Assembly: GCA_964443135.1 (NCBI GenBank) | Contig: CAYUBQ010000002.1 | Span: 10,888 to 74,887, forward strand | DNA: 64,000 nucleotides | Direction: 5' to 3' | DNA from: an uncultured Desulfobacterales bacterium | Lineage (GTDB): Bacteria > Desulfobacterota > DSM-4660 > Desulfatiglandales > HGW-15 | In this document: piece after piece, positions 43,605 to 61,237 of the stretch | Layout of the letters: every line of letters starts with the position of its first letter | Position numbering within the stretch: the stretch's first letter is position 1 | Notes under the pieces: generated by a model | What the model saw: only the letters and a program-made list of their open reading frames with translations | What the model was told of the DNA's origin: nothing | Databases searched by the model: none | Translations under genes and position numbers: made by a program

Positions 43605-43702
43605 GGCGGATCTCATAACCTTTGATTTTTCGGTCATTTGTGGAACACCATCTCGAGTCCGGCAACCTGCGGGGGTCCCTGAACCAGGGCGGGGGGAGAC
43701 GC

Positions 43703-44263
43703 ATGGCGAAGAGAAGCAAGAGGGTTGCAGCAATCGGCGCCGTCATTTTGACGTTTCTGGCGGGGTGCGCCTACCAGCGAGGGACGGTGGAGACGGGGAC
43801 CGTGCTCCAGGAAGGGCGGCACGCCGCGATCCTTCCGCTGGTGAACCTCACCACCTACCCCCACGCCGGCCGCATCGTCGGGGACCTGCTGACCACGGAG
43901 ATGTACGCGTCCTCCGGCTTTCGGATCATGGAGAGCACCGAGATGCTCGAACGGCTCAAGGGCGATGAGGAGGATCTCGACCGGGTCCTGGACCGCACGG
44001 TGGCGCAGAGGATCGGCGCACGGCTGGCGGTGGACACGGTGGTCTTCGGCTCGGTCACCGAGTACCGCTACAAGCGCGGTCTGGACGAGGACCCCGTGGT
44101 CGGGATCAACATCCGCATGCTGGACGTGAAGAGCGGGAACATCCTCGCGGTCGGCAGCCGATCCGAGACGGGCGGTTGCTTCTGGTTCTGCGAGGACTCC
44201 CTGAACCGCCTGGCCCAGAAGGTCTGCCACGACCTCGTGCGCCGGATGGTCAAGGTGAATTGA
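43703..44263 (+). CDS. pelC: PelC-like outer-membrane lipoprotein
   Basis: Lipobox LTFLAGC, about 170-aa mature size. AAILPLVNLTTYPHAGRIVGDLLTTEM...VVFGSVTEY fits the PelC/CsgG-like fold. Supported by the pel gene context. Confidence 0.65.
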   Translation: MAKRSKRVAAIGAVILTFLAGCAYQRGTVETGTVLQEGRHAAILPLVNLTTYPHAGRIVGDLLTTEMYASSGFRIMESTEMLERLKGDEEDLDRVLDRTVAQRIGARLAVDTVVFGSVTEYRYKRGLDEDPVVGINIRMLDVKSGNILAVGSRSETGGCFWFCEDSLNRLAQKVCHDLVRRMVKVN

Positions 44264-45768: not shown

Positions 45769-45811
45769 CCGGGAAATCGCACCAACCGCCCTTGAAGGCG
45801 CCGTTTTCGTG

Positions 45812-46651
45812 ATGAAATTGAAACCAAGCCTCGACACCTGGCTCTGCTTCTACGGGCTGGAGGCCCCTCCCGAGGCCTACGCCCGGTTCGACCTGGTGGT
45901 CTTCGACAGCACCTGGCACCCCGACCTGGTGCGGAGGGAGGACGGGGGGCCCGTGATCCTGGGCTACCTGAGCGCGGCCGAGGTCCTGGAGGGGGGGCCC
46001 TTCTGGCCCCGGGCGGCGGGGCGGGACATCCTGGTCCGGAAGAAACCCCAATGGAACTCCTGGGTCCTGGACCTGCGCGACCCGGCCTGGCGGGATTTCC
46101 TGGTCCGCGAGGCGGTGCCCGGGATCCTGGAGCAGGGCTTCGACGGCATCCTCCTGGACACCCTGGACTCGGCCCTGGCCCTGGAGCTCTGGACGGACCC
46201 GGCCCGCTGGCGCGGGACCCGGGAGGCCGTGATCCGGCTGGTGGAGGAGATCCGCCGCTCCCGGCCGGACACGCTGATCGCGGTCAACCGGGCGCTCCCG
46301 GTCCTGGGGGAGATCGCCCCCTCTCTGGACCTCCTGGTCCTGGAGGGCCTCTCCAGTGTCTACGGAGGCCCGGGGACCGGGTACGTGCCCGTTGCGCCGG
46401 AGGAGCGGCGGCGCCTCCTCGAATGGCTGGAGGCGGGCCGGGCAGAGCGGCCGGGGCTCCCGGTCCTCACCCTGGACTACGCCCCGGAGGACCGGCCGGA
46501 CCTCGTGAACAACGCCGTGGCCCGGGCCCGGCGGAAAGGATTCGTCCCCTATGTCAGCACGCTCGAGCTGGACCGGATCTACCGTCACACGCTGGACGGC
46601 GGCTGCACTCCTGGCGGCGCTCCTCGCCCTTCCGGCGGCGGCGCCGGCTGA
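45812..46651 (+). CDS. TM1410/GH114-like putative glycoside hydrolase (PelA hydrolase-domain analogue), no obvious signal peptide
   Basis: WLCFYG...VILGYLSAAEV...WNSWVLDLRDPAWRDFLV...GFDGILLDTLDSA, the TIM-barrel pattern of this family. Confidence 0.65.
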   Translation: MKLKPSLDTWLCFYGLEAPPEAYARFDLVVFDSTWHPDLVRREDGGPVILGYLSAAEVLEGGPFWPRAAGRDILVRKKPQWNSWVLDLRDPAWRDFLVREAVPGILEQGFDGILLDTLDSALALELWTDPARWRGTREAVIRLVEEIRRSRPDTLIAVNRALPVLGEIAPSLDLLVLEGLSSVYGGPGTGYVPVAPEERRRLLEWLEAGRAERPGLPVLTLDYAPEDRPDLVNNAVARARRKGFVPYVSTLELDRIYRHTLDGGCTPGGAPRPSGGGAG

Positions 46652-48668
46652 GGTCCCTCTCCAGAGAAAGGTGCTGGTGCTCCTGGACCGGGAGGGCCCC
46701 CGGGCCCATCTGGAGAACATCGTCTACGAGACCTGCCAGATGGTGCTCAACTACTACGGCATGCTGCCGGAGTACCGGAACGTCGACGCCGGCCCGCTTC
46801 CCGGCGACGAGGCCATGGCCGCCTACCGGGGCGTGATCACCGCCTTTTCCGGGAGCGGGCCCGAGGACTCGAAGGCGTGTCTGGCGTGGCTCCTCCGGCA
46901 GATGGAGGCCGGCCGGAAGCTGATCGTGCTCGGCTCCCTCGGCGTGCCGGCGTCCGGGGACCCCGAGTCCGAGGCGGACCGCCTGGCGAGCGACGTCTAC
47001 GGCGGGCTGGGCCTCCGGCACGAGGGGAACCACACCGGCGTCCGGTCCCTTCTCCGGTACGCACGCAAGGACCCCGCAGGGATGGAGTTCGAGCGGGACC
47101 TCCCCGCCTTTCCGGAGATCTACGAGCAGTACGTGCCCACGGACGAGGACCTCCACGTCTTTCTGAGCGTCCGTCGGATCGACCGGCCCGAGTCCGAGAG
47201 CGCCGTGGTCGTCACGGGACCCGCCGGCGGTTTCGCCATGGTGGAGTACATGCGGTGGCAGGACCCGGTCACCTTCAAGAAGCAGTGGTACCTGGACCCG
47301 TTCCGGTTCTTCCGCGAGGCCCTGGGCCTCGAGTCCGCGCCCGCTCCCGACCCCACCACCCTGAACGGCCTCCGGGTGGCGATCTCCCACGTGGACGGCG
47401 ACGCGTTCAGCGGCCTCTCCCGCATCGACGACGACCAGCGCCTGTGCGGGGAGGTGATCCGGGACCGGGTCCTGGAGCGGTTCGACTTCCCCGTGACGGT
47501 CTCGGTCATCACCGGGGAGGTGGCCCCCGAGGCCCTGGGGAGCGAGCGGTTGAAGGAGCTCGCCCGGGAGATCTTCGCCCTGCCCAACGTGGAGCCTGCG
47601 AGCCACTCCTACTCCCACCCGTACTACTGGGACCCCGCCTTTTCCGGCAAGAGCCGCTACCACCGGCTCCACGGGATCGAGATCCCGGGCTACGCGTTCG
47701 ACCCGGCCGTGGAGATCGACGGGTCCGTGGCCTACATCAACCGGGAGCTGGCCCCGCCCCACAAGCCCTGCCGGGTGTTCCTCTGGACCGGGAACTGCGA
47801 GCCCCGGGCCTCGGACCTGGCCCGGTGCGACCGGCTGGGGCTCCTGAACATGAACGGGGGCGACACGCTGTTCGACGAGCTGTCCGACTCCTACACTTCC
47901 GTGGCCCCCTACTACCGGAACGTCCGGGGGGAGATCCAGGTCCACACGGGGCAGGCCAACGAGACCATCCTCACCAACCTGTGGGAGGGTCCCTATCAAG
48001 GCTACCGGAACGTCATCACCACCATGGAGCGGACCGGCTCGCCCCGCAGGGTGGCCCCCATCGACATCTACTACCACTTCTACAGCGCCGAGTACCCGGC
48101 GTCCCTCGAGGCTCTCCAGGACGTCTACGCCTGGGCCCTCGGGCAGGAGACCGCCCGCATGTTCACCTCCCGGTACCTGGAGATGGTGCAGGGATACCTG
48201 GACGCAGGCATGCGTCGGCTCGGGCCCGGCCGCTGGGAGGTTCGGGACTACGGCGCCTGCACCACCGTCCGGTTCGAGGACCCGTCCCTCCGGGTGGACC
48301 CGGGCCGGTCGGAGAACGTCCTCGGGTGGATCCGGGGGCCCCAGGGGCTCTTCGTCTCCCTGGCGCCCGACCGGGAGCGGGCCGTGGTCCAGCTGTCGGA
48401 GAACGCCGTCCCGCCCCGGGAGGCCCCACCCTGCGTGCGAAAGGCCGGCGGGCGGGTGGAAATCGTCGGGAGGGAGGAGAACCGGCTGTCTCTCCGGTAC
48501 CGGGGCTTCGGCGAGGGGATGATCCAGATCGCCGGGCTGGAGCCCGGCCGGACCTGCACGGTCTCGGGCTCCGCCCTGGGGGAGAGCGGGTTCCGGCGCG
48601 CCCCCGACGCCGACGGAACCCTGACCCTGAGCCCCGTCTTCACGGGCACGCTGGAGGTCTCATGGTGA
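46551..48668 (+). CDS. secreted polysaccharide deacetylase-like protein (CE4-type motifs; PelA deacetylase-domain analogue)
   Basis: Signal peptide WTAAALLAALLALPAAAPA. ISHVDGDAF (Asp-Asp-type motif 1) and SHSYSHPYYW (H-x-x-x-H motif 2). Overlaps the preceding gene by 101 nt in another frame. Confidence 0.65.
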   Translation: MSARSSWTGSTVTRWTAAALLAALLALPAAAPAEVPLQRKVLVLLDREGPRAHLENIVYETCQMVLNYYGMLPEYRNVDAGPLPGDEAMAAYRGVITAFSGSGPEDSKACLAWLLRQMEAGRKLIVLGSLGVPASGDPESEADRLASDVYGGLGLRHEGNHTGVRSLLRYARKDPAGMEFERDLPAFPEIYEQYVPTDEDLHVFLSVRRIDRPESESAVVVTGPAGGFAMVEYMRWQDPVTFKKQWYLDPFRFFREALGLESAPAPDPTTLNGLRVAISHVDGDAFSGLSRIDDDQRLCGEVIRDRVLERFDFPVTVSVITGEVAPEALGSERLKELAREIFALPNVEPASHSYSHPYYWDPAFSGKSRYHRLHGIEIPGYAFDPAVEIDGSVAYINRELAPPHKPCRVFLWTGNCEPRASDLARCDRLGLLNMNGGDTLFDELSDSYTSVAPYYRNVRGEIQVHTGQANETILTNLWEGPYQGYRNVITTMERTGSPRRVAPIDIYYHFYSAEYPASLEALQDVYAWALGQETARMFTSRYLEMVQGYLDAGMRRLGPGRWEVRDYGACTTVRFEDPSLRVDPGRSENVLGWIRGPQGLFVSLAPDRERAVVQLSENAVPPREAPPCVRKAGGRVEIVGREENRLSLRYRGFGEGMIQIAGLEPGRTCTVSGSALGESGFRRAPDADGTLTLSPVFTGTLEVSW

Positions 48669-51268
48669 GCCCGGAGAATGCCGGGAAGGAGCTGGACCCG
48701 GCCACGGAACCCACCGGATCCAAAGCCGCTTCCGGCTACAACCGCCTCTCCCTGATGCGGTTCCGGGCGTGGCAGATTCTCCTCGTGCTGCTGGTGCTGG
48801 CCGGGGTCTCCTTTCTCCTGTTCCCGCGCGAGCGGAGGCTCGTCGACTTTCACCTGGAGCGGGGCCGGACCCGGGACGCCCTGGTCGAGCTCGACCGCAT
48901 GCTGAGGAAGAGGCCGACCGACCCGGCGCTCCTGGAGCTCGCGGCCGAGACCCGCTTTCGAGCCGGCGACATGGAGGAGGCGATCCGCCTGCAGGAGCAG
49001 GCCGCCCGGCTCTCCCCGGGGGACAAGAGCGCCTGGGAACGGCTCGCCCGGTTCCACGAGTGGAGCCGGAACCCGGCGGAGGCCCTCAGGGTCTACGAGC
49101 GCATCGCCTCCCTGGAGCCCGCGGACCGGGCGGCCCGGGAGAAGATCATCGAGTACGCCCGCTACCTGGGGCGCACCGACCTGGAGGCTGCGGCCGTGGC
49201 GAGCCTCCTGGAGCACGGCGAGGAGCCGGGCCCCGGGGAGGAGCCCCTCCTTCGGGAGCTGACCCGGACCCTGAAGGCCCTGGCCGGGGAGCGAACAGCC
49301 GGTGGGGAGGATCCCCTGCTCGACGAGCTTCTGGTCCGGCTCCACCTGGTGCGATCGGACCTCCTCGAGGAGCGGGGCGAGACCGGGATCTCCGAGGCGG
49401 CCCGGACGGACGCGGCGGAGGCCGCCCTCCACTTCTTCCTGGTGAACGGCCGGCTGGACGACGGCCGAGCCTTCGGCCGGCGTCTGGACCGGAGTCTCCA
49501 GGAGGGCGTGGCCTTCCGCCGGACCTGGGTGGACCTCCTCCGCTGGAACGGGCTCCCGGAGCGTGCCCTGGCCCTGCTGGACGAACTCCTCCAGGAGGAG
49601 CCCGGGAACCGGGAGCTCCTGCGCCTCGCCGGGGAGATCGCCGCTCGGACCGGAAACGTCCGGCGGCTCGCCCTCTCGCTCGAGGAGCAGCTTCGGCTCG
49701 ACCCGGAGTCCGAGAGGCTTCGGGCCTCCCTGGCCGAGCTCTACCGGTTCTCCGGCGATCCCGGCCGGGCCGTTTCCCTGTACGAGGCCCTCCACCGGGA
49801 TCACCCCCGGAACCGGGCCTACCTGGACGCCATGCTTGCAGCGGCCGAGGACGCCGCCGACCCCGCGATCAAGGTGCGGGCCGCGGATTTGGCGGCCGGT
49901 GTGGATCCCCGGGACGCCGACCTCCTCGAACGGCGGGCGGAGCTCTACCTGGCCGCGGAGAAGCCGGGAAAGGCCTGGCCCCTCCTGAGCGTTCTGGCCG
50001 GGCGGGCCGGGGGGGACGAGAAGGCGGTCCGGAGGATGCTCGAGGTGGCCGGGTACACGGACGATCCGGGGACCCTGAAGAAGGCCCTGTCCCAGGCCCT
50101 CTCCCTGAGGCCGACGGACCGGGACCTGCGCCTGGAGGCTGCGGACGCCTTCCTCTGGCTGGAGGGGCCGGAGCGGGCCTACCGGGCCCAGCTCGAGCTC
50201 GTGAAACAGGGCGGCGCCACGCGAGAGGACGTGTTCCGTCTGATCGAGCTGGCCCTGTTCACGAACCGGCCCGAGAACGAGCGGGAGGCCGTGACGCTGG
50301 CCGCCCGGCGGCTCCGGGGACCGGAAGTGCGCGTCCTTCGCGACCGCGCCGCGCAGCTCCCGGAGGGCCTCTCGGACCAAGAAATGCTCGCGGCCGTTCG
50401 GACCTACCTGGATCGGCACCCCGGGGACACCGCCTTCCGGGACCGCCTGATCCGGCTCTACATCGAGTCCGGACGCCCGGGCCGGGCCGCGCCCCTCCTG
50501 GCCGACCGGTCCGAACGGTCCCCCGGCGACCTTCAAAAGGCCCTGGACGCGGGGGAGGCCTATCTCCAGGCGGACCGGCTGAAGCAGGGCCTTCCCTACT
50601 TCGAACGGGCCCTGGCCCTCGACCCGGGGAACGCGGCTCTCCAGAGACGGCTGGTGACCTACCACGGCTGGCTCGGGATGCGGGAGGAGCAGATCGCCGG
50701 GCTGATCCGGCTCGAGGAAGAGGGCCTCCTGGAGCCCGGGGAGCGGACCCGGCTGGCCGGGGCCCTCCTGGAACGGGGAGAAGGGGAACGCGCCCTGGAG
50801 ATCCTCCGGCCTGTGGAGGACCGGGACCCCCTGCCGAAGGAGGGAGGGATCCTCCTGGCCGCGGCCTACGACGCCGCCGGGCAGCGGGAGCGGGCCCTCG
50901 CCGTTTACGAGAGGCTCGCGCGGGACCACCGGGACGACCCGGCCCTCCTGGCCGAGCTGGGGGACCGGGCCCTCTGGCTGGACCGGCTGCCCGCCGCCCT
51001 GGCATTCTACGAGGCGGCCCTGCGGCTCGAGCCGAAGAACCTCCGCGCGCTCAAAGGAAGCGGCCAGATCTACGCCTGGAACAACAACCCGGAGCGGGCC
51101 ATCGCCCGGTTCGAGGCCTACAACCGGCTCGAGCCGGACGACTTCGAGGTGCGGTACCAGCTGGGGGAGCTCTACTTCGCGAACGAGCGGAAAGGTGCGG
51201 CCTTCAAGGAGTACCGGAAGACCCTGGGCCTGATCGACCGGAGGAAAAAGGCCGTCACTCCTCCTTGA
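48662..51268 (+). CDS. membrane-anchored multi-TPR protein (PelB N-terminal TPR-scaffold analogue)
   Basis: One N-terminal TM (WQILLVLLVLAGVSFLLF) followed by about 800 aa of TPR hairpins. ATG 48662 overlaps the deacetylase stop (ATGGTGA). It is the in-frame tail of track ORF 46877..51268. Confidence 0.7.
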   Translation: MVSPENAGKELDPATEPTGSKAASGYNRLSLMRFRAWQILLVLLVLAGVSFLLFPRERRLVDFHLERGRTRDALVELDRMLRKRPTDPALLELAAETRFRAGDMEEAIRLQEQAARLSPGDKSAWERLARFHEWSRNPAEALRVYERIASLEPADRAAREKIIEYARYLGRTDLEAAAVASLLEHGEEPGPGEEPLLRELTRTLKALAGERTAGGEDPLLDELLVRLHLVRSDLLEERGETGISEAARTDAAEAALHFFLVNGRLDDGRAFGRRLDRSLQEGVAFRRTWVDLLRWNGLPERALALLDELLQEEPGNRELLRLAGEIAARTGNVRRLALSLEEQLRLDPESERLRASLAELYRFSGDPGRAVSLYEALHRDHPRNRAYLDAMLAAAEDAADPAIKVRAADLAAGVDPRDADLLERRAELYLAAEKPGKAWPLLSVLAGRAGGDEKAVRRMLEVAGYTDDPGTLKKALSQALSLRPTDRDLRLEAADAFLWLEGPERAYRAQLELVKQGGATREDVFRLIELALFTNRPENEREAVTLAARRLRGPEVRVLRDRAAQLPEGLSDQEMLAAVRTYLDRHPGDTAFRDRLIRLYIESGRPGRAAPLLADRSERSPGDLQKALDAGEAYLQADRLKQGLPYFERALALDPGNAALQRRLVTYHGWLGMREEQIAGLIRLEEEGLLEPGERTRLAGALLERGEGERALEILRPVEDRDPLPKEGGILLAAAYDAAGQRERALAVYERLARDHRDDPALLAELGDRALWLDRLPAALAFYEAALRLEPKNLRALKGSGQIYAWNNNPERAIARFEAYNRLEPDDFEVRYQLGELYFANERKGAAFKEYRKTLGLIDRRKKAVTPP

Positions 51269-52277
51269 CCTTCGCCTCGAAGTGCTCGAAGGCGTCGACG
51301 ATGTCCAGATAGACGCCGTCGAACCCCGCGTCGACGATCCGGTCCAGGGCGGACGCCTCCCCGCCCATCAGGATGCGCCGCCACGCCTCCATCCAGTACT
51401 TCACCTTGTAGTTGCCCGGCCAGTCCGGGTTCTCCTCCCCGAGCCAGGGCGGGGGGGAGCTCTTCCACTCCGGCTTCCAGTAGGGCCGGTACTCCTCGGC
51501 CTCGCCGATGCTCATGTAGGCCAGCACGAAGCGGTTTCCCCCGCACGCCTTCTGCCGGAGCGCCGCGACCTCCCGGCGCGAGAAGGGGACGTCGCCGTGG
51601 AAGAAAGGATCGGTGACGACCATGTCGTACCGGGTCTCCCGCACGGCGTCCACGAAGGCGTCCCGGTCGGTGTAGCTGCACATGTTCAGGAGGTAGAGGA
51701 AGTTCTCGGCCTCCGCCGGCGAGGAAAGGGGGCGGCAGTGGTGTCGAAACGGGCGGGCCGGGTGGGCGGGAATGCGGTCCAGGGCCCGGCTGGTCGCGGC
51801 GAAGCCGATGTATCCCCGCCCGCTGTTGAGCCGGTAGGAGCGCTCGACCTGCTCCCGGCTCCGGCAGTAGTCCGTCACCAGGACCAGAAGGCCGCTTTGC
51901 TGCGCCACCGCCAGAAGCCCGTTCAGCCGGCGCCGGACCGCCTCCGGCGTGGGTCGGCCCAAGCCGCCGTACCCGAAGAACAGGCTCTCCTGGCCCACGC
52001 CGTCGACGGCCGCCACGTACCGGGCCGACACCCGGTCCCCGGGGTCCCCGCCCTCGGTCAGGAGCTGGAGCCCGTTCTGGGGCACCACGAGGAACCCGGG
52101 CCGCTGCTCCCGGGCGTAGGCGCCGATGCGCACCACCAGGTCCCGCATCTCCGCGCGGTAGTCGCGGGGCCTGCTGCCCTCGGGCTCGTCCTTACGCGGG
52201 GCCTCGCGCGTGCAGCCCCCCAGGAGGAGCAGGGAGAGAAACAGGACACAGCTCGTGGGGAAAGCGATCGCTCGCAT
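51255..52277 (-). CDS. MJ1477/TM1410-family (GH114-like) putative glycoside hydrolase lipoprotein
   Basis: Lipobox LLLLGGC. YMSIGEAEEYRPYW...WPGNYKVKYW...GFDGVYLDIVDAFE. Last gene of the minus-strand pel operon. Confidence 0.78.
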   Translation of the reverse strand: MRAIAFPTSCVLFLSLLLLGGCTREAPRKDEPEGSRPRDYRAEMRDLVVRIGAYAREQRPGFLVVPQNGLQLLTEGGDPGDRVSARYVAAVDGVGQESLFFGYGGLGRPTPEAVRRRLNGLLAVAQQSGLLVLVTDYCRSREQVERSYRLNSGRGYIGFAATSRALDRIPAHPARPFRHHCRPLSSPAEAENFLYLLNMCSYTDRDAFVDAVRETRYDMVVTDPFFHGDVPFSRREVAALRQKACGGNRFVLAYMSIGEAEEYRPYWKPEWKSSPPPWLGEENPDWPGNYKVKYWMEAWRRILMGGEASALDRIVDAGFDGVYLDIVDAFEHFEAKVKEE

Positions 52278-52365: not shown

Positions 52366-53757
52366 TCAACCTGTTTCGGCGCTGCCCTGCACACGCAGGT
52401 CCGAGGCCCGTCGAAACACCTGGTACTCCAGGCCTCCCACGGTCCGGTTCACGAGGAAGAAACCGGCCGCAGCGGCCGTCAAGGAGGCGGCCAGGAAGCC
52501 GGTCCCGTGGAATCGCCAGCCCGCCTCGATGGAGAGCAGGGTGAAGACGGCGTTCAGCAGGCAGAACAGCCCGTTCAGCCTCAGCAGGAGGCCGTACTCG
52601 TCGAGGTACTGGATGATGAGAAAGTAGAAGAAGTAGAGGGAGAAGAAGATGGTGCCGGTCAGCAGGTAGTGGAACACGAAGGGGTTGGACCACGGGATGG
52701 GGACGATGCCGATGTAGACCAGGAAGAGGACGAGCATGCAGGCCCCGCCGTAGAACAGGAACAGGGAGGAGGAGGTCTGGGCGATCCCGCCGAACAGCTT
52801 CTCCTTCTCCACGGCCAGCTCCCGAAAGGGGAAGTTGTTCGAGAGCTTGAAGATGAACCGCTCGTAAGGGCCGTTGATGCTCCTCTTGATGCCCTTGTAG
52901 ATGATCAGGGAGCCGACCATCATGATGGTCAGGGCCACGAAGAACGGAAAGTCGTACTCCCCGTAGAAGTGAAACACCCCGTCCACGGACTTCCCGGTGG
53001 CCGGGTGAAACCAGAAGAGGATCTTGTCCACCCAGAACCCGAACATGAACAGGAATGCGGACAGACCGATCCGCCCGGCCTGGGCCCGTTTCAGGAAGGC
53101 GTCGTCCAGGCGGACCTCCGCGCGGAGGTAGAGCTTTACCACGTAGGAGTACCCGCCCGCCGCCGGGATCGCCACGCCGATGGAGAAGAAGAGGAGCAGG
53201 GCCTGGGTCTCCGTCATGCGGGTGGCCCCGAAGAGGATCAGGGTGGTCCCCATGCCGAGCCCGAACAGCTTCAGGAGCAGACGCTCGCGGCGCACCGAGC
53301 TGAGGACCGTGCCGATGCACCAGAACAGGCTCAGAACGGCGGTGAGACCGATGAAGGTGATCTTGAGGTTCACGTCGATGGAGGAGAACGGCACCACCAG
53401 CACGGCGGCGAGCAAAAGGGCCAGCACGGTCACCAGGATGGTCAGGACCATGAGGCTGTTGACGATGTCGTGAAACGTCCCCAGGTAAACCTTGTCCGCC
53501 ATGTGGCGGGTGAACAGGGTGTGAAAGGGGGAGGTGAGGACGAGAGAGAGGGCGGTCGCATAGGTGACGAGGAGGTAAAAGAGCACGGGAGCGCGGCTCG
53601 TCATCAGGTGAACGGTGACGCCCATCACGGCCAGGCAGAAGATGGTGAGAAACCACGCGCCCACCGCCTCGAAGGAGTCCAGCGACTCCTCGAGGAGGAG
53701 CCTGGTCATGGAGGGCCGGCGCTTCAGCCGCTCAACCAGCCGTACGATATCGCCCAT
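52366..53757 (-). CDS. pelG: PelG-like polytopic membrane protein (Pel exopolysaccharide export/polymerisation component)
   Basis: About 12 TM helices, about 460 aa, directly downstream of pelF. The assignment rests mainly on size, topology and conserved gene order. Confidence 0.65.
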   Translation of the reverse strand: MGDIVRLVERLKRRPSMTRLLLEESLDSFEAVGAWFLTIFCLAVMGVTVHLMTSRAPVLFYLLVTYATALSLVLTSPFHTLFTRHMADKVYLGTFHDIVNSLMVLTILVTVLALLLAAVLVVPFSSIDVNLKITFIGLTAVLSLFWCIGTVLSSVRRERLLLKLFGLGMGTTLILFGATRMTETQALLLFFSIGVAIPAAGGYSYVVKLYLRAEVRLDDAFLKRAQAGRIGLSAFLFMFGFWVDKILFWFHPATGKSVDGVFHFYGEYDFPFFVALTIMMVGSLIIYKGIKRSINGPYERFIFKLSNNFPFRELAVEKEKLFGGIAQTSSSLFLFYGGACMLVLFLVYIGIVPIPWSNPFVFHYLLTGTIFFSLYFFYFLIIQYLDEYGLLLRLNGLFCLLNAVFTLLSIEAGWRFHGTGFLAASLTAAAAGFFLVNRTVGGLEYQVFRRASDLRVQGSAETG

Positions 53758-55210
53758 GCATGAGCTCCCGGTAGAGGTCCCGGTACCGCTTCAGGACCAG
53801 GTCTTCGCCGTATCGGTTCTCGATCCGGCGGATGCCGTTCTCCGCCATGCGATCGGCTGCGGTCTCGTCCCGGAGCACGGCGAGGGCGGCCTCCGCGATC
53901 CCCTCGGCGTCCATGACGCGGCGCACCGAGCCCGCCTCTCCGATCCCGTCCCCTTCCCCGAGGAGGAGCTCGCGACAGGCGCCCACGTCGGTGGCCACCA
54001 CGGGGAGGCCGCTCGCCATGGCCTCCATGACGGCCAGGGGCATGGCCTCCTTGACGCTGGTGAGGAGGAGGACGTCCATCTCCCGGTAGTAGGGGATCAC
54101 GTCGGCGGGGCCGGTGAAGGTGAGGGTCTCACCCAGACCGAGCATCTTCACCAGGTCCCTGCACTCCTGGTAGTAGCCGGGCTGGTCGTCGGTGGGGCCG
54201 ACGGCGAGGGCTCGGACGTCCGGCAGGGCCTGCCGGATGAGTGCCACCACCTGGATGAAGGTCTTGATGTCCTTGACGGCGTCCACCCGCCCGACGAACC
54301 CCACGGTCGGCGGCCGGGTCCTGCACCGCTCCCGTCTCGCCTCCAGGAACCGCGGGATGTCGATCCCGTTCGGGATCACCTGGATGCGCTCCGGGTCCGC
54401 GCCGTACTCCTCCTCCAGCCTGCGGTTCCCCTCGAACAGGGTGACGATCCGGTCGCAGGCGTTGTACTGCCACAGGCAGAGGGCGGTGAAGCTGTCGATC
54501 CACATCTCCTTCAGGTAGGCGTCGTCCAGCCACTCGCTCTTGAGCAGCTCCATCTCCCGCTCCTGGAGGTAGATGCCGTGCTCCGTGATCAGGCCGGCCC
54601 GGTCGTCGAGCACGGCCTTGAGGCAGGTCACCAGGCCCCCGTAGCCCGTCCCCGGGGAGTGATAGACCGCGGCCTCCGGGATCCGGGGCAAAATCGTGAG
54701 GAGGCGGTAGAGGATCAGGTGGATGTTTCGAACGTTGTAGAAGTACTTCAGGAACCCCGCGTCCCCCCGGAACTCCTCGTAGAGGCGGGTGAGCAGGGAG
54801 AACGCGGGCTCGTCCTGGAAGAAGTTCCGAAAAACGCCGGGGGAGAGCTCGAAGATCACCTCGCGGAGGGTCTCGATGCTCCCGTCGGAGAGCCTCCCCT
54901 CCTTCCACTCCGTCATCAGGCGGTAAAGCCCTTCGGAGAGGGCGGCCCATCGTTTCCGGGAGATTTTCAGGGGCGCGGACGCCTCGATCTCGGTGCAGTC
55001 GAAAATGTCGAACTCCTGGTACGACACGACGTTTTCCGGGAGCCGGTATCTCCGATCCTCCGCCTTCTTCTCCTCGGCGACGAGGGCCACCACGGCGAAC
55101 GAGAGCTCCTCGAGGTTCTCCATGAGCCACTGGAGCCACGAGGAGACCCCGCCCGTGACGTAGGGGTAGCTTCCCTCTACAACCAGGCAGATGTCAGCAC
55201 TCTTCGCCAT
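53732..55210 (-). CDS. pelF: PelF-type GT4 glycosyltransferase
   Basis: N-terminal ICLVVEGSYPYVTGGVSSWLQWL motif as I recall for PelF proteins, plus the GT4 C-terminal E-x7-E region (SVKEAMPLAVMEAMASGLPVVATDVG). Start at MAKSAD (complement of 55208-55210). Confidence 0.82.
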   Translation of the reverse strand: MAKSADICLVVEGSYPYVTGGVSSWLQWLMENLEELSFAVVALVAEEKKAEDRRYRLPENVVSYQEFDIFDCTEIEASAPLKISRKRWAALSEGLYRLMTEWKEGRLSDGSIETLREVIFELSPGVFRNFFQDEPAFSLLTRLYEEFRGDAGFLKYFYNVRNIHLILYRLLTILPRIPEAAVYHSPGTGYGGLVTCLKAVLDDRAGLITEHGIYLQEREMELLKSEWLDDAYLKEMWIDSFTALCLWQYNACDRIVTLFEGNRRLEEEYGADPERIQVIPNGIDIPRFLEARRERCRTRPPTVGFVGRVDAVKDIKTFIQVVALIRQALPDVRALAVGPTDDQPGYYQECRDLVKMLGLGETLTFTGPADVIPYYREMDVLLLTSVKEAMPLAVMEAMASGLPVVATDVGACRELLLGEGDGIGEAGSVRRVMDAEGIAEAALAVLRDETAADRMAENGIRRIENRYGEDLVLKRYRDLYRELMHGRYRTAG

Positions 55211-56190
55211 GCGCTTGCCGCCTCTTTGACGCGGTCCGGGATGAACACCCCGCCCCCCGATTCGATGAGCAGGTAGAGGTCCTGGAACGTGTCGTAGTTC
55301 CTGCTTCGGAACGCCAGCTCGAACTCGTAGCTGATCCACTTGGGGAAGTAGTAGTCGCCCGTTGCCCGGGCCTGCCGGTAGATCATGTCCGCCTCCTCGA
55401 CCCGGTCCGCCTCGAGCAGGTAGCGGACGGCGAAGAGGGCGTCGTCCTCGGTCTTGCCCCGGTGAAAGGCCCGGATGGCGCAGTCGCAGGCCTTGGAGGC
55501 GTAGAACGGCTTCATCACCGGATCGGCCAGATCGAGGTAGCTGATCTCATGGTACAGGTTGGCCAGGTGGACCAGGTCCGAGGGGCCCGTCTCGGGCGAG
55601 GCCTCCAGCTGGTTGATCTCGTGGAGGATCTTGTCCATCTTCTTGTTCAGGACGTCGATGGCCATGAGCACGACGCTCTGGTGCGGGCTCAGCCGGACGA
55701 TGTACTTCAGGAGGCCCGACTTGGTGGCGGACCAGTCCATGTCCCCGATGAGGCCGACCATCTTCAGCCCCTGGCTTCTCGTCAGCCCCCGGATGAGCAG
55801 GGCCTCGGAAACGGGCATGGTGCGGCCCTCGAACGACCTCTGGAGGACCAGAAGGACGTCCTGGTTGACCTTGTGAAACGACTCGGACCGGACCGGGTGG
55901 ATCGGGTAGAACCGCAGGAAGAGGCAGAAGAAGAGGGCCGAGGCCGGCCCGATGACCGGAATGGCGGAGACGACCACCAGAAACGCGAGGAACCCGCGGT
56001 TCATCACACGCTTTCGGAGCATCCTGTCGGTCCCCATCAGGAGGCCGTTGATCAGCACGGTCAGCCCGACGGCCGTGGCGTGGGAAAGGAAGAACCCCGC
56101 CAGCTCGGTGTGCCCCGAAATGCCTCCCAGGAGGAAGTAGGCCGAGGAAAGCTCCGTGACGGTCCAGTAGACATAGAGCTTGTACTTCAC
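55177..56190 (-). CDS. pelE: PelE-like inner-membrane protein with C-terminal helical (TPR-like) domain
   Basis: GTG start in a GTGA overlap with the pelD stop. N-terminal TM helices followed by a helical repeat region. Position between pelD and pelF. Confidence 0.6.
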   Translation of the reverse strand: MKYKLYVYWTVTELSSAYFLLGGISGHTELAGFFLSHATAVGLTVLINGLLMGTDRMLRKRVMNRGFLAFLVVVSAIPVIGPASALFFCLFLRFYPIHPVRSESFHKVNQDVLLVLQRSFEGRTMPVSEALLIRGLTRSQGLKMVGLIGDMDWSATKSGLLKYIVRLSPHQSVVLMAIDVLNKKMDKILHEINQLEASPETGPSDLVHLANLYHEISYLDLADPVMKPFYASKACDCAIRAFHRGKTEDDALFAVRYLLEADRVEEADMIYRQARATGDYYFPKWISYEFELAFRSRNYDTFQDLYLLIESGGGVFIPDRVKEAASAWRRVLTSAWL

Positions 56191-57413
56191 GCCGGCACCT
56201 CGGGCTTCCCGGGCCATGCGGGCGCCGACTCGAAGGCGAGCTCCGGGTGGGCCCGGGACAGCCGCCTGATCACGTAGGGGACGTTCGCCTCCGCGGCCAT
56301 GGCCAGGCAGAGGGTCAGCTCGTCTTCGCCGGTCATCACCAGCATGTCGTAGAGCCGCAGGGAGGACGCGAGGGCCCTCGCCCGCTCCTCGGTGACGGGT
56401 CCGGTGACGCGCAGGACCGCATAGGGGAGCCCGTAGCGGCGGTACCGGGCCGTGGTCCGGGCCATGACGCGCTCGCCCTCCTCCCGCTTGTACACGAGGA
56501 CCGACGAGAAGACGCTCATGGGAAGGAGCTCCTCCAGGTGGAGGCGGTTCTCGATCAGGACCTTGATCCAGTGGGCGGCGATCTTGAGCAGGTTGATCAC
56601 GTTGTCGGAGAGGTTGATGAACCGGATCTCCTCCAGCAGGAGGACGTACCGGAGCGCCCCGGCCTGGGAGAGGATGGGAACGGCCATGACCAGCCGGTTC
56701 TCGATCTCCTTGGGGACGACCACCTCCTGCTCCGTGGCGGCGACCTTGATGATCTCCGGCATCTCTTCGGTCTTCCACTCGAGCGTGTCCGGAAGAGACG
56801 TCCCTCCGAAGGAGACGGCACGGACGAAGGTGCCGCTTCCCCGGGGCTCGAAGAGGCTCGACTTCTCCACGTGGCAGTGGGAGTGGAGGACGTAGAGGAT
56901 CTCGTTGAAGAAGGCGTCCCGCTCCGGGATCTCCTCCAGGCGCCTCAGGGCCTGGTACATGATCCTCGGAGACTCCATGTCCACGAGGACATCCTGGAAG
57001 GCGTCCTGGAGAGCCCGGTCCCTCTCGGAGAGCTCGATGGTCACCCGCTCCAGCCGCTTGCGCAGGATGGTGTTGGTCAGCTCGGTCCCCAGGACCCTCC
57101 TGTCCGTCCCGGTCCGCACGAACCCGATGAGGAGGAGCGCGGTGACGAAGAAGGTGACCTCGAGGTAGCGCCCGGCGAGGAACCCGGGCAGACCGGCGCC
57201 CATGTCGGCGAAGAGGAGAGCCGCCGTTCCCGCCGCGGCCCCGATCATTCCCCGGACGCCGTAGTAGAGAGCGAGCGCCAGCCCCACGAAGGCCGTGACC
57301 AGGAAGTAGAGCTCCAGCCCGAGGATTTCTTCCCTTCGCAGGATCAGGACGGTGCCGTAGAAGAGGACGATCTCTCCCAGGAACGCCGTTTGTTTCCATT
57401 TCGAAGACGACAT
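56187..57413 (-). CDS. pelD: PelD-like c-di-GMP receptor (4 TM + GAF-like + degenerate GGDEF)
   Basis: Four N-terminal TM helices. The C-terminal ...SSLRLYDMLVMTGEDELTL keeps an RxxD I-site five residues before a degenerate GG(D/E)EF position. Confidence 0.7.
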   Translation of the reverse strand: MSSSKWKQTAFLGEIVLFYGTVLILRREEILGLELYFLVTAFVGLALALYYGVRGMIGAAAGTAALLFADMGAGLPGFLAGRYLEVTFFVTALLLIGFVRTGTDRRVLGTELTNTILRKRLERVTIELSERDRALQDAFQDVLVDMESPRIMYQALRRLEEIPERDAFFNEILYVLHSHCHVEKSSLFEPRGSGTFVRAVSFGGTSLPDTLEWKTEEMPEIIKVAATEQEVVVPKEIENRLVMAVPILSQAGALRYVLLLEEIRFINLSDNVINLLKIAAHWIKVLIENRLHLEELLPMSVFSSVLVYKREEGERVMARTTARYRRYGLPYAVLRVTGPVTEERARALASSLRLYDMLVMTGEDELTLCLAMAAEANVPYVIRRLSRAHPELAFESAPAWPGKPEVPA

Positions 57414-57470: not shown

Positions 57471-57812
57471 TCAGGCGGCAAACGCCCGGACGGCTTCTTC
57501 CCTGCTCTCGAAGATACGGAAGACCTGGTCCATGCGCACCACCTTGAACAGGTCCTGCACCTGGCTGGAGACGCTGCACAGGAGCAGGTCCCCCCGGCCC
57601 TCATCCTTCACCTTTCGGAGGCAGGAGAGGAGGGCGCCGCAGCCCGAGCTGTCCACAAAGATCAGCCCGGACATGTCGAACACCACCTGCCTGTGCTGTT
57701 CCAGGATCGGCGCGACCTCGTTCTTGAACTCCTGGCTGTTGCCGGCGTCCAGGGTGTCGCCGGGGATCATCACCAACGTGACCTCCCCGGCGGGCTCCGT
57801 CCGAAGCTCCAT
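57471..57812 (-). CDS. STAS-domain anti-sigma-factor antagonist (SpoIIAA/RsbV-like)
   Basis: 113 aa, with ...VVFDMSGLIFVDSSGCGALL keeping the phosphorylatable DSSG serine context. GGAAGGAGGG upstream of the ATG (complement of 57810-57812). Confidence 0.88.
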   Translation of the reverse strand: MELRTEPAGEVTLVMIPGDTLDAGNSQEFKNEVAPILEQHRQVVFDMSGLIFVDSSGCGALLSCLRKVKDEGRGDLLLCSVSSQVQDLFKVVRMDQVFRIFESREEAVRAFAA

Positions 57813-57844
57813 CCGACCCTCCTTCCGCGTGTGCACCGGTCCCG

Positions 57845-60800
57845 CTATGTCGGAAGCGGACGCTTCTTCACGAGCCGGACCTGGTTGGTTCCGTCGGGCG
57901 CGCGGGAGTACGTCACGCCGTCCATGTAGTTTTCCATGATGATCAGACCGAAGCCGTGGTCCCGGATCGGGTCGGCGGGGGCCGAACCCTCCTCCGCGCC
58001 CAGGAACGGCTTTCCCCAGTGGTGGAGGGTGAACTCCCACCGGTCGGCAAACACCTCCGCCGACAGCTGAATGCGTCCCGAGGGATCCTCCTCGTAGGCG
58101 TGCTTCACGATGTTGGAGACGGCCTCGTTCAGCGAGATCCCGATCTGCCACTGGGTGTCCTCGTGCGTCCCCTCCAGGCCGCCGGACGTGCACGCACGCC
58201 GGACGAAGTGGCGGAGCGTGTCCAGCTCGTCGAGCCGGCTCTCGAGCTCCAGATCCATCCGGGAAAGCGGTTCGCCCCCCCGTTCCCCGCCGATCTTGAC
58301 AGCCACGCAGGTGAGGTCGTCCAGGAACGTCCGGATGTGGGAAAACGCCGTCACGGTGTCCCGGACCTTCTCGATGACCTGCTCCACGGGGAGCCGGGCC
58401 GCCTCTTCGATGCAGCGGGAGAGCCGCTCCCGGCCGAAGAGCCGTCCCCGCTCGTCCCGGGCCTCGGTGACACCGTCCGAGTAGAAGAAGAAGAGGTCCC
58501 CCTCCTCGAAGGGGACCGAGGCCTGCCGGTAGGTCTCGTTCATCCGGAAGCCCAGGGGGACGTTGTACCCCTCCAGCAGGGTCGTCTCGTCCGCGGCGGC
58601 CCGCACGTGAAGGGTTCGCGGGTGGCCGCAGTCCACGAAGTCGAGCCGGCGGGCGTCCAGGTCGAACCGCGCGTAGGTGAGGGTGACGAAGGCCTCCAGG
58701 TCGATGAGCTCCTCGACCATGCGATCGTGGACGCTCTGCACGATGTCCCCGGGGAGGGGCACCATGCAGGCGGGAGAGAGCATGGCGCTCAAGGCCTTGA
58801 GAAAGTGTCCCTTGGTCCCGGCGCCGAGGAGCGCAGCGGGGACCCCCTTCCCCATGACGTCGCCCACGATGAGATCGAAGACCCTGTCGGACAGGGAGAT
58901 GAACTCGTAGAAATCGCCGTCGATGCGCTGGGACGGGATGGTCATGGCGGCGATCCGGACCCCCTTCAGGTTCCTGGGCGGCGAGGCCAGGAGCAGGGTC
59001 TGCTGGATCTTGGAGCCGATCTCGATCTCCCGCTCCCGGGCCTTGGACAGGTCCCGCTCGGCGCGCTTCAGCTCGAGGATCTCGCCCAGCTGCTCGGCGA
59101 CCACCTGGAGAAGCGTGCGTTCCTCCACGAGAAAGGGACCCTCGTCGCGCTCGGGGCGTTCCTCCTTGTAGAACACCTCGATGAGACCGGTTTTTCGTCC
59201 GTTGAGCTTCACCGGCCGGCTCAGACCCCACTCCGTCTCCCGGAACCCGGCCGAGCGGAACACCTGCTTCCCGTAAGTAATCCGCGCGCAGGCGATGTCG
59301 GGGTAGAGAAACGCGGGGGGAATGAGCTCCAGGATGCCGCGCAGGATGTCGATCGCACGGGCCTCCGGCCGGCCTTTGAGCCGCGAGATGGCGTACAGGC
59401 AGTAGACCTGCTTGTACCGCATGTCGAGCTCCTGCGTCCTCCGCCGAAGCGCCTCTTCGGCCTCCTTTCTCTCCGTGATGTCCCGCACGATGCCCAGGGC
59501 GTTCCAACGGCCCTTGACCTTGCCCGTCGACAGCGACAGCTCGATGGGGAACTCGGTCCCGTCCGAGCGGCGTGCGGCCAGCTCGCGGGTCCTTCCGATC
59601 ATGGCGCCTTCGCCGTTCTCCTTCCAGGCCTGGACGGCCTCCGCATACTGCTCCCGGAACCTCTCCGGGGCCAGCAGGGTGTGGGCGTCCCGCCCCAGGG
59701 CCTCGTCCTCGGTGTAGCCGAACATGTACTCGGCGGACCGGTTCCAGTAGTTGATCACGCCGTCCTGGTCGACGGAGATGATGGCGTCCTGGGCGGCGCT
59801 GGCCAGGTTCCGGAACCGCTCCTCCACCTCCGCCCGGGCCTCCTCCGCCTCGCTGCGCTCGGTCACGTCCCGGAAGATGGCGCGCGTGGAGACCGGCCGC
59901 CCTTCCTCGAACCTGCAGTTGACGTTCCCCTCCACGACGACCCTCCGCCCGTCCTTGGCCAGAAAGACCGCCTCCAGGTCCCTGACGGACTTCCCCGAGA
60001 GCACCTCCTCGAACGCATCCTTGCAGTGGGACAGGCTCTCCGGGGCGATGACGTCGAAGAGGTTCAGCTCGGATACCTCCTTCGCGGTGTAGCCGAGGGT
60101 CTTGGTCCACATCCGGTTGACGTACAGGAACCGTCCGTCGGAAGAAACCGAGTGGATCAGGTCGTTGGCGCTGTCGAAGAGATCCCGGAGCCGCTCCTCG
60201 CTCTCCTTGAGGGCGGTCTCGGTCCGCTTCCGCTCCTCGATCTCCTCTGTCAGACGGGCGTTGGCCACGGAGAGCTCCTGCGTCCGCTGCTTCACCCGCT
60301 CCTCCAGCTCCGCGTGCGCTTTCCGGAGGGCGGTCTCGGCCGCCTCCTTCTTCCGAAAGAGGAGGGCGTTCTCGATGGCCGCGGCCGCGGCGCCGCTCAG
60401 GGCCGTCAGCAGGTAGAGGTCGGACTTTCGAAAGCCGAAGGGCTTGTCCACCGAGTGCACGTACAGGGCGCCCATGGTCCGGGACTTGCTCACGAGAGGC
60501 ACACACATGACGGACTTGATCCGCTTGAGCTCCATGCTCTCGGGGAGGTCCTCGTCCTCCTCCTCGGTGTCGGCCATGATGACGGCCTTCCCCTCGGCGA
60601 GCGTCCGCCGCACCACCGTGAGGCTGTACTCGGACCGCGAGTCCCCGTCCGGGAACTTGGAGCGGGTGGCGAGCTCCCTCAGCTCGCCGCTCTCCTCGTC
60701 GATCAGCAGGATGGCCATGGTGTCGCCGGACTCGAGCGTGGAGGACACCGACTCCACGATCTGGTACAGCAGACCCGACAGGTCCAGGGACTGCATCAGC

Positions 60801-61237
60801 AGGTTGGAGATCTCGTGGACCGTCTCCAGCTTCTCCCGGTCGGTGATCCGCCGGTCTTTGAGGAAATTGAAGCGCTCGCTCTCCGTCTCCAGGCCCGCGA
60901 GATCGATCATGTACCGGGAGATGAGGCCCTCCTCCTCGTAGACCCGGCCGACGGTCACCAGGATGTTGCCGACGGAGATGTGCTGACCCAGGGAGACGGG
61001 GACCTCCACGCCGGGTTCGATCCGCCGGCCGTCGGTCCAGGTCCCGTTCCGGCTGTGGAGGTCCACCACGTGGTACGCCTCCCCCCGCCTGAGGATCTTC
61101 AAATGCTCACGCGAGACCGACAGGTCGTTGATGCGCACGTGGTTGGTCGTCCCCCTGCCCACGTTCACCTCGTCTTCCTCGAGCGGAAACTCAATCCCAT
61201 CGAACCGGCCGTTGATGACATAAAGCTTGGTTTTCAT
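57845..61237 (-). CDS. 1130-aa multidomain signalling protein: FHA - GAF - PAS - PAS - unassigned module - PP2C/SpoIIE phosphatase - RsbW/SpoIIAB-type serine kinase (HATPase_c)
   Basis: FHA (NVGRGTTNHVRINDLSVSREHLKI...SRNGTW). GAF (...MCVPLVSKSRTMGALYV). Two PAS S-boxes ending DVTERSEAEE and DITERKEAEE. PP2C (GDFYEF...GDVMGKGVPAAL...YSDGVTEA). Kinase N-box NEAVSNIVKHAY and G-box DHGFGLIIM. Start at MKTKLYV (complement of 61235-61237). Confidence 0.88.
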   Translation of the reverse strand: MKTKLYVINGRFDGIEFPLEEDEVNVGRGTTNHVRINDLSVSREHLKILRRGEAYHVVDLHSRNGTWTDGRRIEPGVEVPVSLGQHISVGNILVTVGRVYEEEGLISRYMIDLAGLETESERFNFLKDRRITDREKLETVHEISNLLMQSLDLSGLLYQIVESVSSTLESGDTMAILLIDEESGELRELATRSKFPDGDSRSEYSLTVVRRTLAEGKAVIMADTEEEDEDLPESMELKRIKSVMCVPLVSKSRTMGALYVHSVDKPFGFRKSDLYLLTALSGAAAAAIENALLFRKKEAAETALRKAHAELEERVKQRTQELSVANARLTEEIEERKRTETALKESEERLRDLFDSANDLIHSVSSDGRFLYVNRMWTKTLGYTAKEVSELNLFDVIAPESLSHCKDAFEEVLSGKSVRDLEAVFLAKDGRRVVVEGNVNCRFEEGRPVSTRAIFRDVTERSEAEEARAEVEERFRNLASAAQDAIISVDQDGVINYWNRSAEYMFGYTEDEALGRDAHTLLAPERFREQYAEAVQAWKENGEGAMIGRTRELAARRSDGTEFPIELSLSTGKVKGRWNALGIVRDITERKEAEEALRRRTQELDMRYKQVYCLYAISRLKGRPEARAIDILRGILELIPPAFLYPDIACARITYGKQVFRSAGFRETEWGLSRPVKLNGRKTGLIEVFYKEERPERDEGPFLVEERTLLQVVAEQLGEILELKRAERDLSKAREREIEIGSKIQQTLLLASPPRNLKGVRIAAMTIPSQRIDGDFYEFISLSDRVFDLIVGDVMGKGVPAALLGAGTKGHFLKALSAMLSPACMVPLPGDIVQSVHDRMVEELIDLEAFVTLTYARFDLDARRLDFVDCGHPRTLHVRAAADETTLLEGYNVPLGFRMNETYRQASVPFEEGDLFFFYSDGVTEARDERGRLFGRERLSRCIEEAARLPVEQVIEKVRDTVTAFSHIRTFLDDLTCVAVKIGGERGGEPLSRMDLELESRLDELDTLRHFVRRACTSGGLEGTHEDTQWQIGISLNEAVSNIVKHAYEEDPSGRIQLSAEVFADRWEFTLHHWGKPFLGAEEGSAPADPIRDHGFGLIIMENYMDGVTYSRAPDGTNQVRLVKKRPLPT

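Follow-up and report, generated by a model that had tools for sequence, protein, structure and literature searches.

HsbR/HsbA of Pseudomonas aeruginosa and CrsR/CrsA of Shewanella oneidensis are partner-switching systems in which a REC-PP2C protein ending in a kinase/anti-sigma domain is encoded with an adjacent STAS protein, and their output affects biofilm formation (PMC5085249, PMC6482189). The kinase-like domains of both HsbR and CrsR sequester RpoS, which is released by the STAS protein (PMC6482189), and phosphorylated HsbA (HsbA-P) acts on the diguanylate cyclase HsbD (PMC5085249). In Vibrio fischeri, polysaccharide-dependent biofilm formation has the STAS protein SypA as its key output, and the mode of action of SypA is given as unknown (PMC4517449); in Anabaena PCC 7120 the STAS domain of All4160 directly controls a polysaccharide-biosynthetic enzyme (PMC13555669). 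The locus described here lies on the minus strand of a 64,000-nucleotide (nt) stretch of DNA (the window) from an uncultured Desulfobacterales bacterium (GenBank assembly GCA_964443135.1, contig CAYUBQ010000002.1, forward-strand positions 10,888 to 74,887), in which a gene encoding a PP2C phosphatase fused to an RsbW-type kinase is followed by a STAS gene and then by pelDEFG. An initial annotation, made from the sequence without database searches, had drawn attention to this arrangement as a partner-switching module heading a Pel operon.

Conservation of a STAS gene upstream of pelD

The gene run begins with the sensor phosphatase/kinase gene (61237..57845, 1130 amino acids, aa) and the STAS gene (57812..57471, 113 aa), and continues with pelD (57413..56187, 408 aa), a putative pelE that overlaps both pelD and pelF (56217..55177, 346 aa), pelF (55210..53732, 492 aa), pelG (53757..52366, 463 aa) and a gene for a GH114 family lipoprotein resembling the PelA hydrolase (52277..51255, 340 aa), all on the minus strand. 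The sensor and STAS genes are separated by 32 nt, STAS and pelD by 57 nt and pelG and the GH114 gene by 88 nt, while overlaps of 26-34 nt occur at the pelD/E, pelE/F and pelF/G junctions. This order, with its short gaps and overlaps, is that of the initial annotation, and it was confirmed by the coordinates and by domain annotation with Pfam and NCBIfam, with scores far beyond chance; the evidence for pelD and pelE is of a different kind and is given below. The locus has a GC content of ~66% and the region consequently contains many spurious open reading frames (ORFs), from which the one minus-strand gene run was picked out by codon-position GC and family searches.

No terminator-like site was found in any gap of the run from the sensor gene to the GH114 gene, including the 57-nt gap at which the initial annotation had considered that a terminator might split STAS from pelD. 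Rfam gave no match across the whole window, and the STAS-pelD spacer contains no stable hairpin, its folding being no better than that of shuffled sequences (z=+1.4); an attenuator or riboswitch between the genes was rejected on these three results. A crude scan detected no sigma-70-like promoter. The layout is operon-like, and co-transcription of the sensor, STAS and pel genes is predicted.

The initial annotation had proposed that co-occurrence of such genes with pelD be surveyed in other genomes. A PelD profile yielded 51 loci, 17 of them in species-representative genomes and 34 in metagenomes, to which a further locus (L057) was added by way of a STAS homologue; the loci were annotated by phmmer with the window proteins and key proteins were checked with Pfam. 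Among the 51 loci and L057 there are 16 in which a STAS gene is the immediate upstream neighbour of pelD in the same orientation, and the window is a further case. On a neighbour-joining tree of PelD the linkage proved to be conserved within one clade of sulfate-reducer relatives, that of the window: counting loci for which at least 500 bp upstream were available, it was present in 17 of 19 there (L011 and L030 lacking it), as against none of 22 in the sister clade, where a TPR protein precedes pelD instead. Within the window's clade PelD identity falls to ~45% and GC content ranges from 45% to 67%. In an outgroup, Desulfacinum hydrothermale DSM 13146 (L015), a split set is located 2.3 kb upstream of pelD, consisting of a STAS gene, a stand-alone RsbW gene and a divergent REC-PP2C gene.

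The sensor genes that accompany the STAS gene differ between loci. The window, L001-L003, L020, L021 and L057 encode a sensor with the order FHA-GAF-PAS-PAS-GAF-like-PP2C-kinase, a REC-PP2C-kinase sensor is found in L004, L023, L026 and L031, and a REC-PAS3-PP2C-kinase sensor in L045. L005 and L027 have a REC-PP2C protein without a kinase domain, and STAS still adjoins pelD there. The STAS gene beside pelD is the constant element of the clade while the sensor domains are swapped, and no other observation argues as strongly for a functional link to Pel and for the STAS protein as the predicted output of the module.

Domains and motifs of the module

The sensor protein is predicted to be cytoplasmic, as a scan of its 1130 aa revealed no hydrophobic segment, and its ATG start at 61237 agrees with the N-termini of the homologues P0057-P0059. 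Its domain order is FHA, GAF, PAS, PAS, GAF-like module, PP2C and HATPase_c_2, and Pfam bore out the earlier assignment of a PP2C phosphatase and an RsbW-type kinase to this one chain behind FHA, GAF and PAS domains. The FHA domain (60950..61219, minus strand; aa 7-96) matched PF00498 (aa 25-90, 1.4e-13) and PF16697 (Yop-YscD_cpl, aa 7-96, 1.5e-14), and in the translation it keeps G27-R28, S42-R43-x-H45 and N64-G65-T66, the GR, SRxH and NGT residues that we take to be the canonical contacts to phospho-threonine. It is followed on the same strand by the GAF domain (60371..60787; aa 151-289; PF13185 1.9e-15, PF01590 5.3e-15) and by two PAS domains (59462..60205; aa 345-450 and 473-592; PF00989 1.3e-28 in two stretches, TIGR00229 2.4e-55).

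The segment between the second PAS domain and the phosphatase (59063..59425, minus strand; aa ~605-725) had been listed as an unassigned module. It is indeed a distinct module, with the signature YCLYAIS...PFLxEERTLL strongly conserved in the seven closest homologues (P0056-P0062), and it is now probably, if tentatively, assigned as a small GAF-like domain: an AlphaFold model gave a small alpha/beta domain between long helices, with a core predicted local distance difference test (pLDDT) score >90, Foldseek matches to it were mostly GAF domains (the NifA GAF, 3cit) although weak (E>=4e-3), and the Pfam GAF match was likewise weak (E=0.19).

The PP2C domain, of the SpoIIE/RsbU type (58292..58879, minus strand; aa 787-982; PF07228 1.3e-39), has a fold that begins near aa 735 and aligns with the structures of SpoIIE, SiaA and Rv1364c. 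Its acidic motifs are all present (GD775FYE, GD793VMGKG, SD921G and D973D974), the Asp and Gly columns of these motifs being invariant or nearly so in the homologue alignment, and the phosphatase thus shows none of the degeneracy that the initial annotation had considered might undo the proposal.

The STAS protein matched PF01740 (3.4e-18) and TIGR00377 (anti-sigma factor antagonist, 63 bits against a cut-off of 53). Its Ser55, in FVDSSGCG, aligns with the DSSG phosphorylation motif of SpoIIAA, in keeping with the earlier statement that this serine is retained; the length is 113 aa rather than the 114 previously given, with the ATG at 57812 preceded by a good Shine-Dalgarno sequence, GGAAGGAGGG. 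A PP2C domain with its metal-binding Asp motifs and a STAS-only DSSG protein are therefore both present and, judged from sequence motifs, the module is a bona fide set of PP2C, an RsbW-type kinase domain and STAS.

The kinase domain, of the RsbW/SpoIIAB type (HATPase_c_2; 57866..58243, minus strand; aa 999-1124; PF13581 1.8e-18), has an intact N box (E1038, N1042, H1046) and an intact G2 box (G1095-F-G1097-L). Its G1 box reads H1073-W-G-K-P-F, whereas RsbW (6m36) and SpoIIAB (1til) have D-x-G in residue-level alignments; this Asp of the GHKL ATPases contacts adenine. The 120 best homologues of the core were taken, 115 of which had an alignable kinase domain, and among these 115, the window protein included, the G1 position is occupied by His in 110, by Asp in four and by Tyr in one. 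The motif at this place, aa 1071-1078 of the window sensor, reads LHHxGxxF in the 110 and is typical of the fused PP2C-HATPase_c_2 family (homologues P0056-P0175), in which the N and G2 boxes remain conserved, while the stand-alone RsbW-like kinase near the Desulfacinum pelD retains the G1 Asp.

To judge from this alignment, the change from Asp to His (His1073 in the window) is a hallmark of the fused family that selection has maintained, and it does not represent decay: it runs through the family, and selection acts on the N and G2 boxes as well. A degenerate kinase, as raised in the initial annotation, was rejected in that form on these grounds. The sensor kinase is predicted to be active despite its His G1 box, which could also mean altered binding or use of nucleotide, or a role in docking only. 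A literature search gave no G1-box information on CrsR, and no named Pseudomonas or Shewanella member appeared among the cluster names of ten REC-type homologues. When the family profile was compared with the Protein Data Bank (PDB) it matched the Rv1364c structure 3ke6 (E=6e-9), in an alignment that ended before the G1 box.

The sensor family and cassettes outside pel loci

The C-terminal 530 aa of the sensor gave 1751 matches at E<=1e-10 among 8000 candidates scored, with a core that is ~50% identical and N-termini composed of REC, PAS, GAF, HAMP/dCache or FHA-GAF; identity between the window core and many REC-PP2C-HATPase_c_2 proteins is 47-50%. FHA, GAF, PP2C and HATPase_c_2 are combined in eight of the top 120 homologue clusters. 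Neither the antagonistic fusion nor the N-terminal FHA domain is novel in itself, given the size of the family and this recurrence. Two points raised by the initial annotation were not upheld by these data: that the domain order with an N-terminal FHA was not known, since it recurs in those eight clusters and there is a copy in L052 without pel genes, and that SypE/SypA and Rv1364c, which it had cited as known cases, are the nearest relatives, since the fused core belongs to this 1751-match family and HsbR/HsbA and CrsR/CrsA, not named there, share both the PP2C-kinase chain and the STAS protein.

The same arrangement of an epimerase gene, an FHA-GAF-PAS-PP2C-kinase gene and a STAS gene is found in L052 (3390-8351) and in L057 (2215-7339). 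Of the two, only L057 continues into pelDEFG and the GH114 gene; the gene next to STAS in L052 is unrelated and convergent. Two explanations offer themselves: pel has been lost from L052 or relocated, or the cassette serves other targets. Other sensor-STAS cassettes stand alone in L054, L060 and L062 or lie near flagellin in L058. In three of the nine non-pel loci examined, STAS is immediately upstream of a Bac_transf gene (L056, 1015-3556; L059, 1651-4415; L061, 357-1456), which encodes a phosphoglycosyl transferase that initiates polysaccharide synthesis, and the STAS proteins concerned are 47-54% identical to that of the window. In L056 and L059 the gene ahead of STAS encodes an RsbW-type kinase or a REC-PP2C-kinase, and in L061 an MBOAT acyltransferase follows. 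STAS at the head of polysaccharide genes is a recurring theme.

Non-pel STAS homologues are 47-56% identical to the window STAS, and the pel-linked STAS proteins accompanying REC-type sensors are just 37-50% identical to it. A dedicated lineage of pel-linked STAS proteins was rejected on these identities. The STAS protein tracks its sensor and not PelD, as the non-pel homologues are the closer ones, and on these comparisons whole sensor-STAS cassettes seem to be exchanged between loci.

Two further elements were noted in loci with REC-type proteins. A PAS-HisKA_3 histidine kinase gene and a gene for a NarL/LuxR-type response regulator are located after pelG in L005 (15113-17202), and also in L023, L026 and L027; this pair may act as phosphodonor to the REC-PP2C protein encoded at the operon head. 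A small ORF of 131-153 aa lies between an enolase gene and the REC-PP2C-kinase gene in L004 (4268-4660), L045 (4028-4441) and L031 (4359-4817), with a weak LexA_DNA_bind match in one of the three loci.

PelD and the remainder of the Pel locus

The pelD product had no match in Pfam, NCBIfam or the PDB sequences, the last searched with a PelD profile even at E<=10. An AlphaFold model of the protein built on 48 homologues (pLDDT 75.7) was compared with the PDB by Foldseek, and the eight best matches were all chains of P. aeruginosa PelD 156-455 (E 1.7e-9 to 9e-8; template modelling score, TM, 0.5-0.57). An exhaustive search with the PelD profile reached 198 representatives, including GAF+PelD_GGDEF proteins and epimerase-PelD fusions, which are typical of Gram-positive bacteria. 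The variant has N-terminal membrane helices, a GAF domain and a short degenerate GGDEF domain (GEDEL) with an I-site; R353-x-x-D356, five residues before GEDEL, and R384 are invariant in the 48 homologues. Binding of cyclic di-GMP (c-di-GMP) requires R367/D370/R402 in P. aeruginosa PelD and R363/D366/R395 in B. cereus PelD (PMC7112168), and R353/D356/R384 of the window protein correspond to these residues. By fold match, profile search and synteny the 408-aa gene is a member of the PelD family, and the earlier pelD call is borne out on those grounds and not by curated sequence models. The retained I-site makes a c-di-GMP input to this PelD plausible.

The 346-aa gene is a putative pelE: its position, size and membrane helices, which lie in the N-terminal 110 aa, fit the earlier designation, and all related loci have a gene of this kind in the interval from pelD to pelF, although the protein matches no family model. 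PelF is a GT4 glycosyltransferase (NCBIfam equivalog NF038011, 386 bits against a cut-off of 100; DUF3492 and Glycos_transf_1) and PelG a polytopic membrane protein with many hydrophobic segments (PF16933, 9.1e-59, 200 bits against a cut-off of 29). The GH114 lipoprotein (PF03537, 1.3e-15; TIGR01370, 190 bits against a cut-off of 181) begins with a hydrophobic stretch and 'LLGGC', and its gene is conserved after pelG in L001, L002, L018, L020, L021 and L057.

Five plus-strand genes (43619..51268; identified with Pfam, some with provisional starts) converge on the run. They encode a CsgG-like lipoprotein (43619-44263), a TPR protein (within 43969-45768), a second GH114 protein (within 45512-46651), a 705-aa protein with no family match (46551-48668) and an 868-aa TPR protein (48662-51268). 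The last three are kept convergent after the pel operon in L001, L002, L015, L020, L021 and L045, and in L030 they are found upstream of pelD in the same direction. The convergent set is probably the export or modification part that completes the pel locus; no deacetylase (PelA) or porin (PelB) domain was recognised among these genes and the GH114 gene.

Flanking genes

A gene for an HD_4 (RelA/SpoT-like HD) protein (61305-62144, plus strand) is divergent from the sensor gene. It was found in no related locus, is therefore probably unrelated to the module and was rejected as part of the system. A molybdopterin-binding oxidoreductase gene converges with it, and between the two is a 29-nt AT-rich element, GCGTTATGCAATTATGCAAAAACGTCCCC, present in three copies within 140 bp (62127-62264), one of them inverted, with 0 expected by chance; the flanking ORFs take their final codons and their stops from these copies. 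The neighbouring genes at 36255-43229 and 62239-63858 are unrelated to the finding and encode a ferredoxin/pyridine-nucleotide-disulphide oxidoreductase fusion, a cNMP-binding protein, an amino-acid permease, a carbon-nitrogen hydrolase, a GntR/FCD regulator and a molybdopterin-binding oxidoreductase subunit.

Discussion

In the reading that we favour, and to which we give slightly less than an even chance, the partner-switching pair is the regulatory head of the Pel operon and the STAS protein gates the Pel synthase directly. A PP2C-kinase core like that of HsbR and CrsR, with its STAS partner, would have been recruited to the front of an operon for the Pel exopolysaccharide. In the cytoplasm, the sensor would integrate phospho-threonine, through its FHA domain, with ligand or redox signals received by the GAF domain, the two PAS domains and the GAF-like module, and these inputs would set the balance of the C-terminal activities, the PP2C domain dephosphorylating Ser55 of the STAS protein and the RsbW-type domain phosphorylating it. 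In one of its phospho-states the STAS protein would bind a cytoplasmic part of PelD-E-F-G, with the GAF/GGDEF region of PelD or PelF as the most plausible site, and so gate polymerisation in parallel with c-di-GMP at the PelD I-site. The conserved adjacency, the operon-like layout and the precedents of SypE/SypA, HenR/All4160 and HsbA-P/HsbD support direct gating and point to the Pel machinery as the presumed target. A bolder version, in which the STAS protein is a direct phospho-controlled subunit or inhibitor of the Pel synthase acting on PelD or PelF, and its HsbA-like subfamily a portable plug-in that evolution repeatedly set before polysaccharide machines (pelD here, Bac_transf genes of other phyla) with exchangeable sensors, is offered tentatively, as less likely than not.

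Several observations weigh against direct gating. Contact between the STAS and Pel proteins is a prediction, and the His in place of the G1 Asp leaves phosphorylation of Ser55 by the HATPase_c_2 domain likewise predicted. The basal loci of the clade, L011 and L030, and the whole of the sister clade have no STAS module, L052 carries the FHA-to-kinase and STAS cassette without pel genes, and the STAS homologues from outside pel loci are closer to that of the window than the REC-type pel-linked ones. CrsR and HsbR, moreover, bind RpoS through the kinase-like domain (PMC6482189), and transcriptional control is a live rival for this reason. Sequestration of a sigma factor by HATPase_c_2, from which dephosphorylated STAS would free it so that the pel operon and the module are transcribed and STAS never contacts the Pel proteins, is the main rival to direct gating, although we regard it as unlikely. 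It would accommodate the REC-PP2C-kinase/anti-sigma architecture before pelD in relatives such as L004 and L026, the co-evolution of STAS with the sensor rather than with PelD, and the cassettes without pel genes in L052, L054, L060 and L062; yet there is no sigma factor gene near the locus in the window or in the related loci, the crude scan gave no sigma-70-like promoter, and in L005 and L027 STAS adjoins pelD although the kinase/anti-sigma domain is missing. Of the post-translational control by FHA, GAF/PAS and c-di-GMP inputs that had been proposed initially, the I-site, the FHA residues and the linkage to pel have stood, whereas the control itself would have to be set beside this transcriptional route.

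Indirect control, in which a phospho-form of the STAS protein activates a distant diguanylate cyclase and the resulting c-di-GMP acts on Pel through the PelD I-site, has a precedent in HsbA-P and HsbD of P. aeruginosa (PMC5085249), and R353, D356 and R384 of PelD are invariant and match known binding residues (PMC7112168). A motif search of the 64-kb window, however, found no GGDEF, EAL or HD-GYP gene, Pfam found none of these among selected neighbours in the related loci, and a relay of this kind would leave the retention of STAS precisely beside pelD unexplained; we consider it improbable. A motif search of all ORFs in the window also found no Hanks kinase gene, and since neither a cyclase nor such a kinase was found among these ORFs, both the c-di-GMP relay and a source of phospho-threonine are without local support. 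It is more doubtful still that a general signalling cassette happens to lie upstream of pel and regulates something else. Cassettes of this kind form a very large family with many genomic contexts, and its STAS proteins are not specific to pel by sequence; against this, the adjacency survives a fall in PelD identity to ~45%, a range of GC content from 45% to 67% and replacement of the sensor input, the genes are on the same strand with short gaps and no terminator, and STAS is found again upstream of other polysaccharide genes. In view of the conserved adjacency, coincidence alone is unlikely.

Among biofilm polysaccharides Pel ranks with the most widespread and, to our knowledge, binding of c-di-GMP to PelD is the sole established post-translational control of its synthesis. 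The locus suggests a new control of Pel besides c-di-GMP. If the favoured reading is true, a conserved serine-phosphorylation switch at the pel operons of Desulfobacterota adds a second, multi-signal input, which would take in phospho-threonine, ligands of the GAF/PAS domains or, among relatives, phosphorelays of the two-component type; if the STAS protein docks directly, a synthase-dependent exopolysaccharide machine gains a second post-translational switch beside c-di-GMP. With four candidate synthase proteins, the question of the STAS target, which arises equally for SypA, becomes easier to test. It has been proposed that pel operons mark those syntrophic sulfate reducers that form aggregates (PMC10553843), and knowing what turns them on bears on the assembly of syntrophic consortia.

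Comparison with known systems

HsbR/HsbA (PA3346/PA3347) and CrsR/CrsA resemble the window module in having PP2C followed by an RsbW-type kinase/anti-sigma domain in one chain, encoded beside a STAS substrate with a phosphorylatable serine (Ser56 in HsbA, Ser55 here), a comparison made by published domain descriptions and not by sequence orthology. They differ at the N-terminus, where HsbR and CrsR have a REC domain fed by a phosphorelay and the window sensor has FHA-GAF-PAS-PAS-GAF-like domains instead; the REC architecture of the HsbR/CrsR type does stand before pelD in the related loci L004, L026 and L045. The hsbRA genes are outside the pel locus and act via FlgM, HsbD and RpoS, whereas the window module is inside the pel operon.

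In Rv1364c of Mycobacterium tuberculosis, as in the window sensor, PAS, PP2C and RsbW-like domains are joined in one chain; a STAS domain is reportedly carried in the same polypeptide, and Rv1364c, unlike the window module, is not known to have a polysaccharide context. The order of domains in SypE is said to be kinase-REC-PP2C, which differs from the sensors-PP2C-kinase order of the window, and Syp employs many glycosyltransferases whereas Pel is synthase-dependent. The likeness is that a bifunctional kinase/phosphatase is paired with a STAS-only protein encoded inside an exopolysaccharide locus (PMC4517449, PMC10120452), and by analogy with SypA in syp the window STAS may control the pel locus. 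In HenR/All4160 a PP2C phosphatase and kinases set the phospho-state of a STAS domain (PMC13555669), as is predicted for the window; there the STAS domain is fused to a glycosyltransferase and the kinases and phosphatase are separate, and here STAS is free-standing and the kinase and phosphatase are fused.

The canonical Pel systems of P. aeruginosa and B. cereus share with the window the pelDEFG core and a PelD with GAF and degenerate GGDEF domains, an RxxD I-site and a second Arg. The window PelD is, however, too divergent for the Pfam and NCBIfam models, and the canonical pel loci have no described partner-switching genes. The word 'STAS' occurs 0 times in the systematic Pel-locus papers PMC7112194 and PMC7112168, as do 'anti-sigma', 'PP2C' and 'SpoIIE' in PMC7112194, and no link of STAS, anti-sigma antagonist or PP2C to pel was found in PMC10553843 or in the open-access literature pairing pelD with STAS terms. 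The initial annotation had known of no partner-switching module wired to a Pel locus, and none was found in the open-access Pel literature searched. As a switch the window module is of a known type; its wiring to Pel is newly seen, and its input side is modular.

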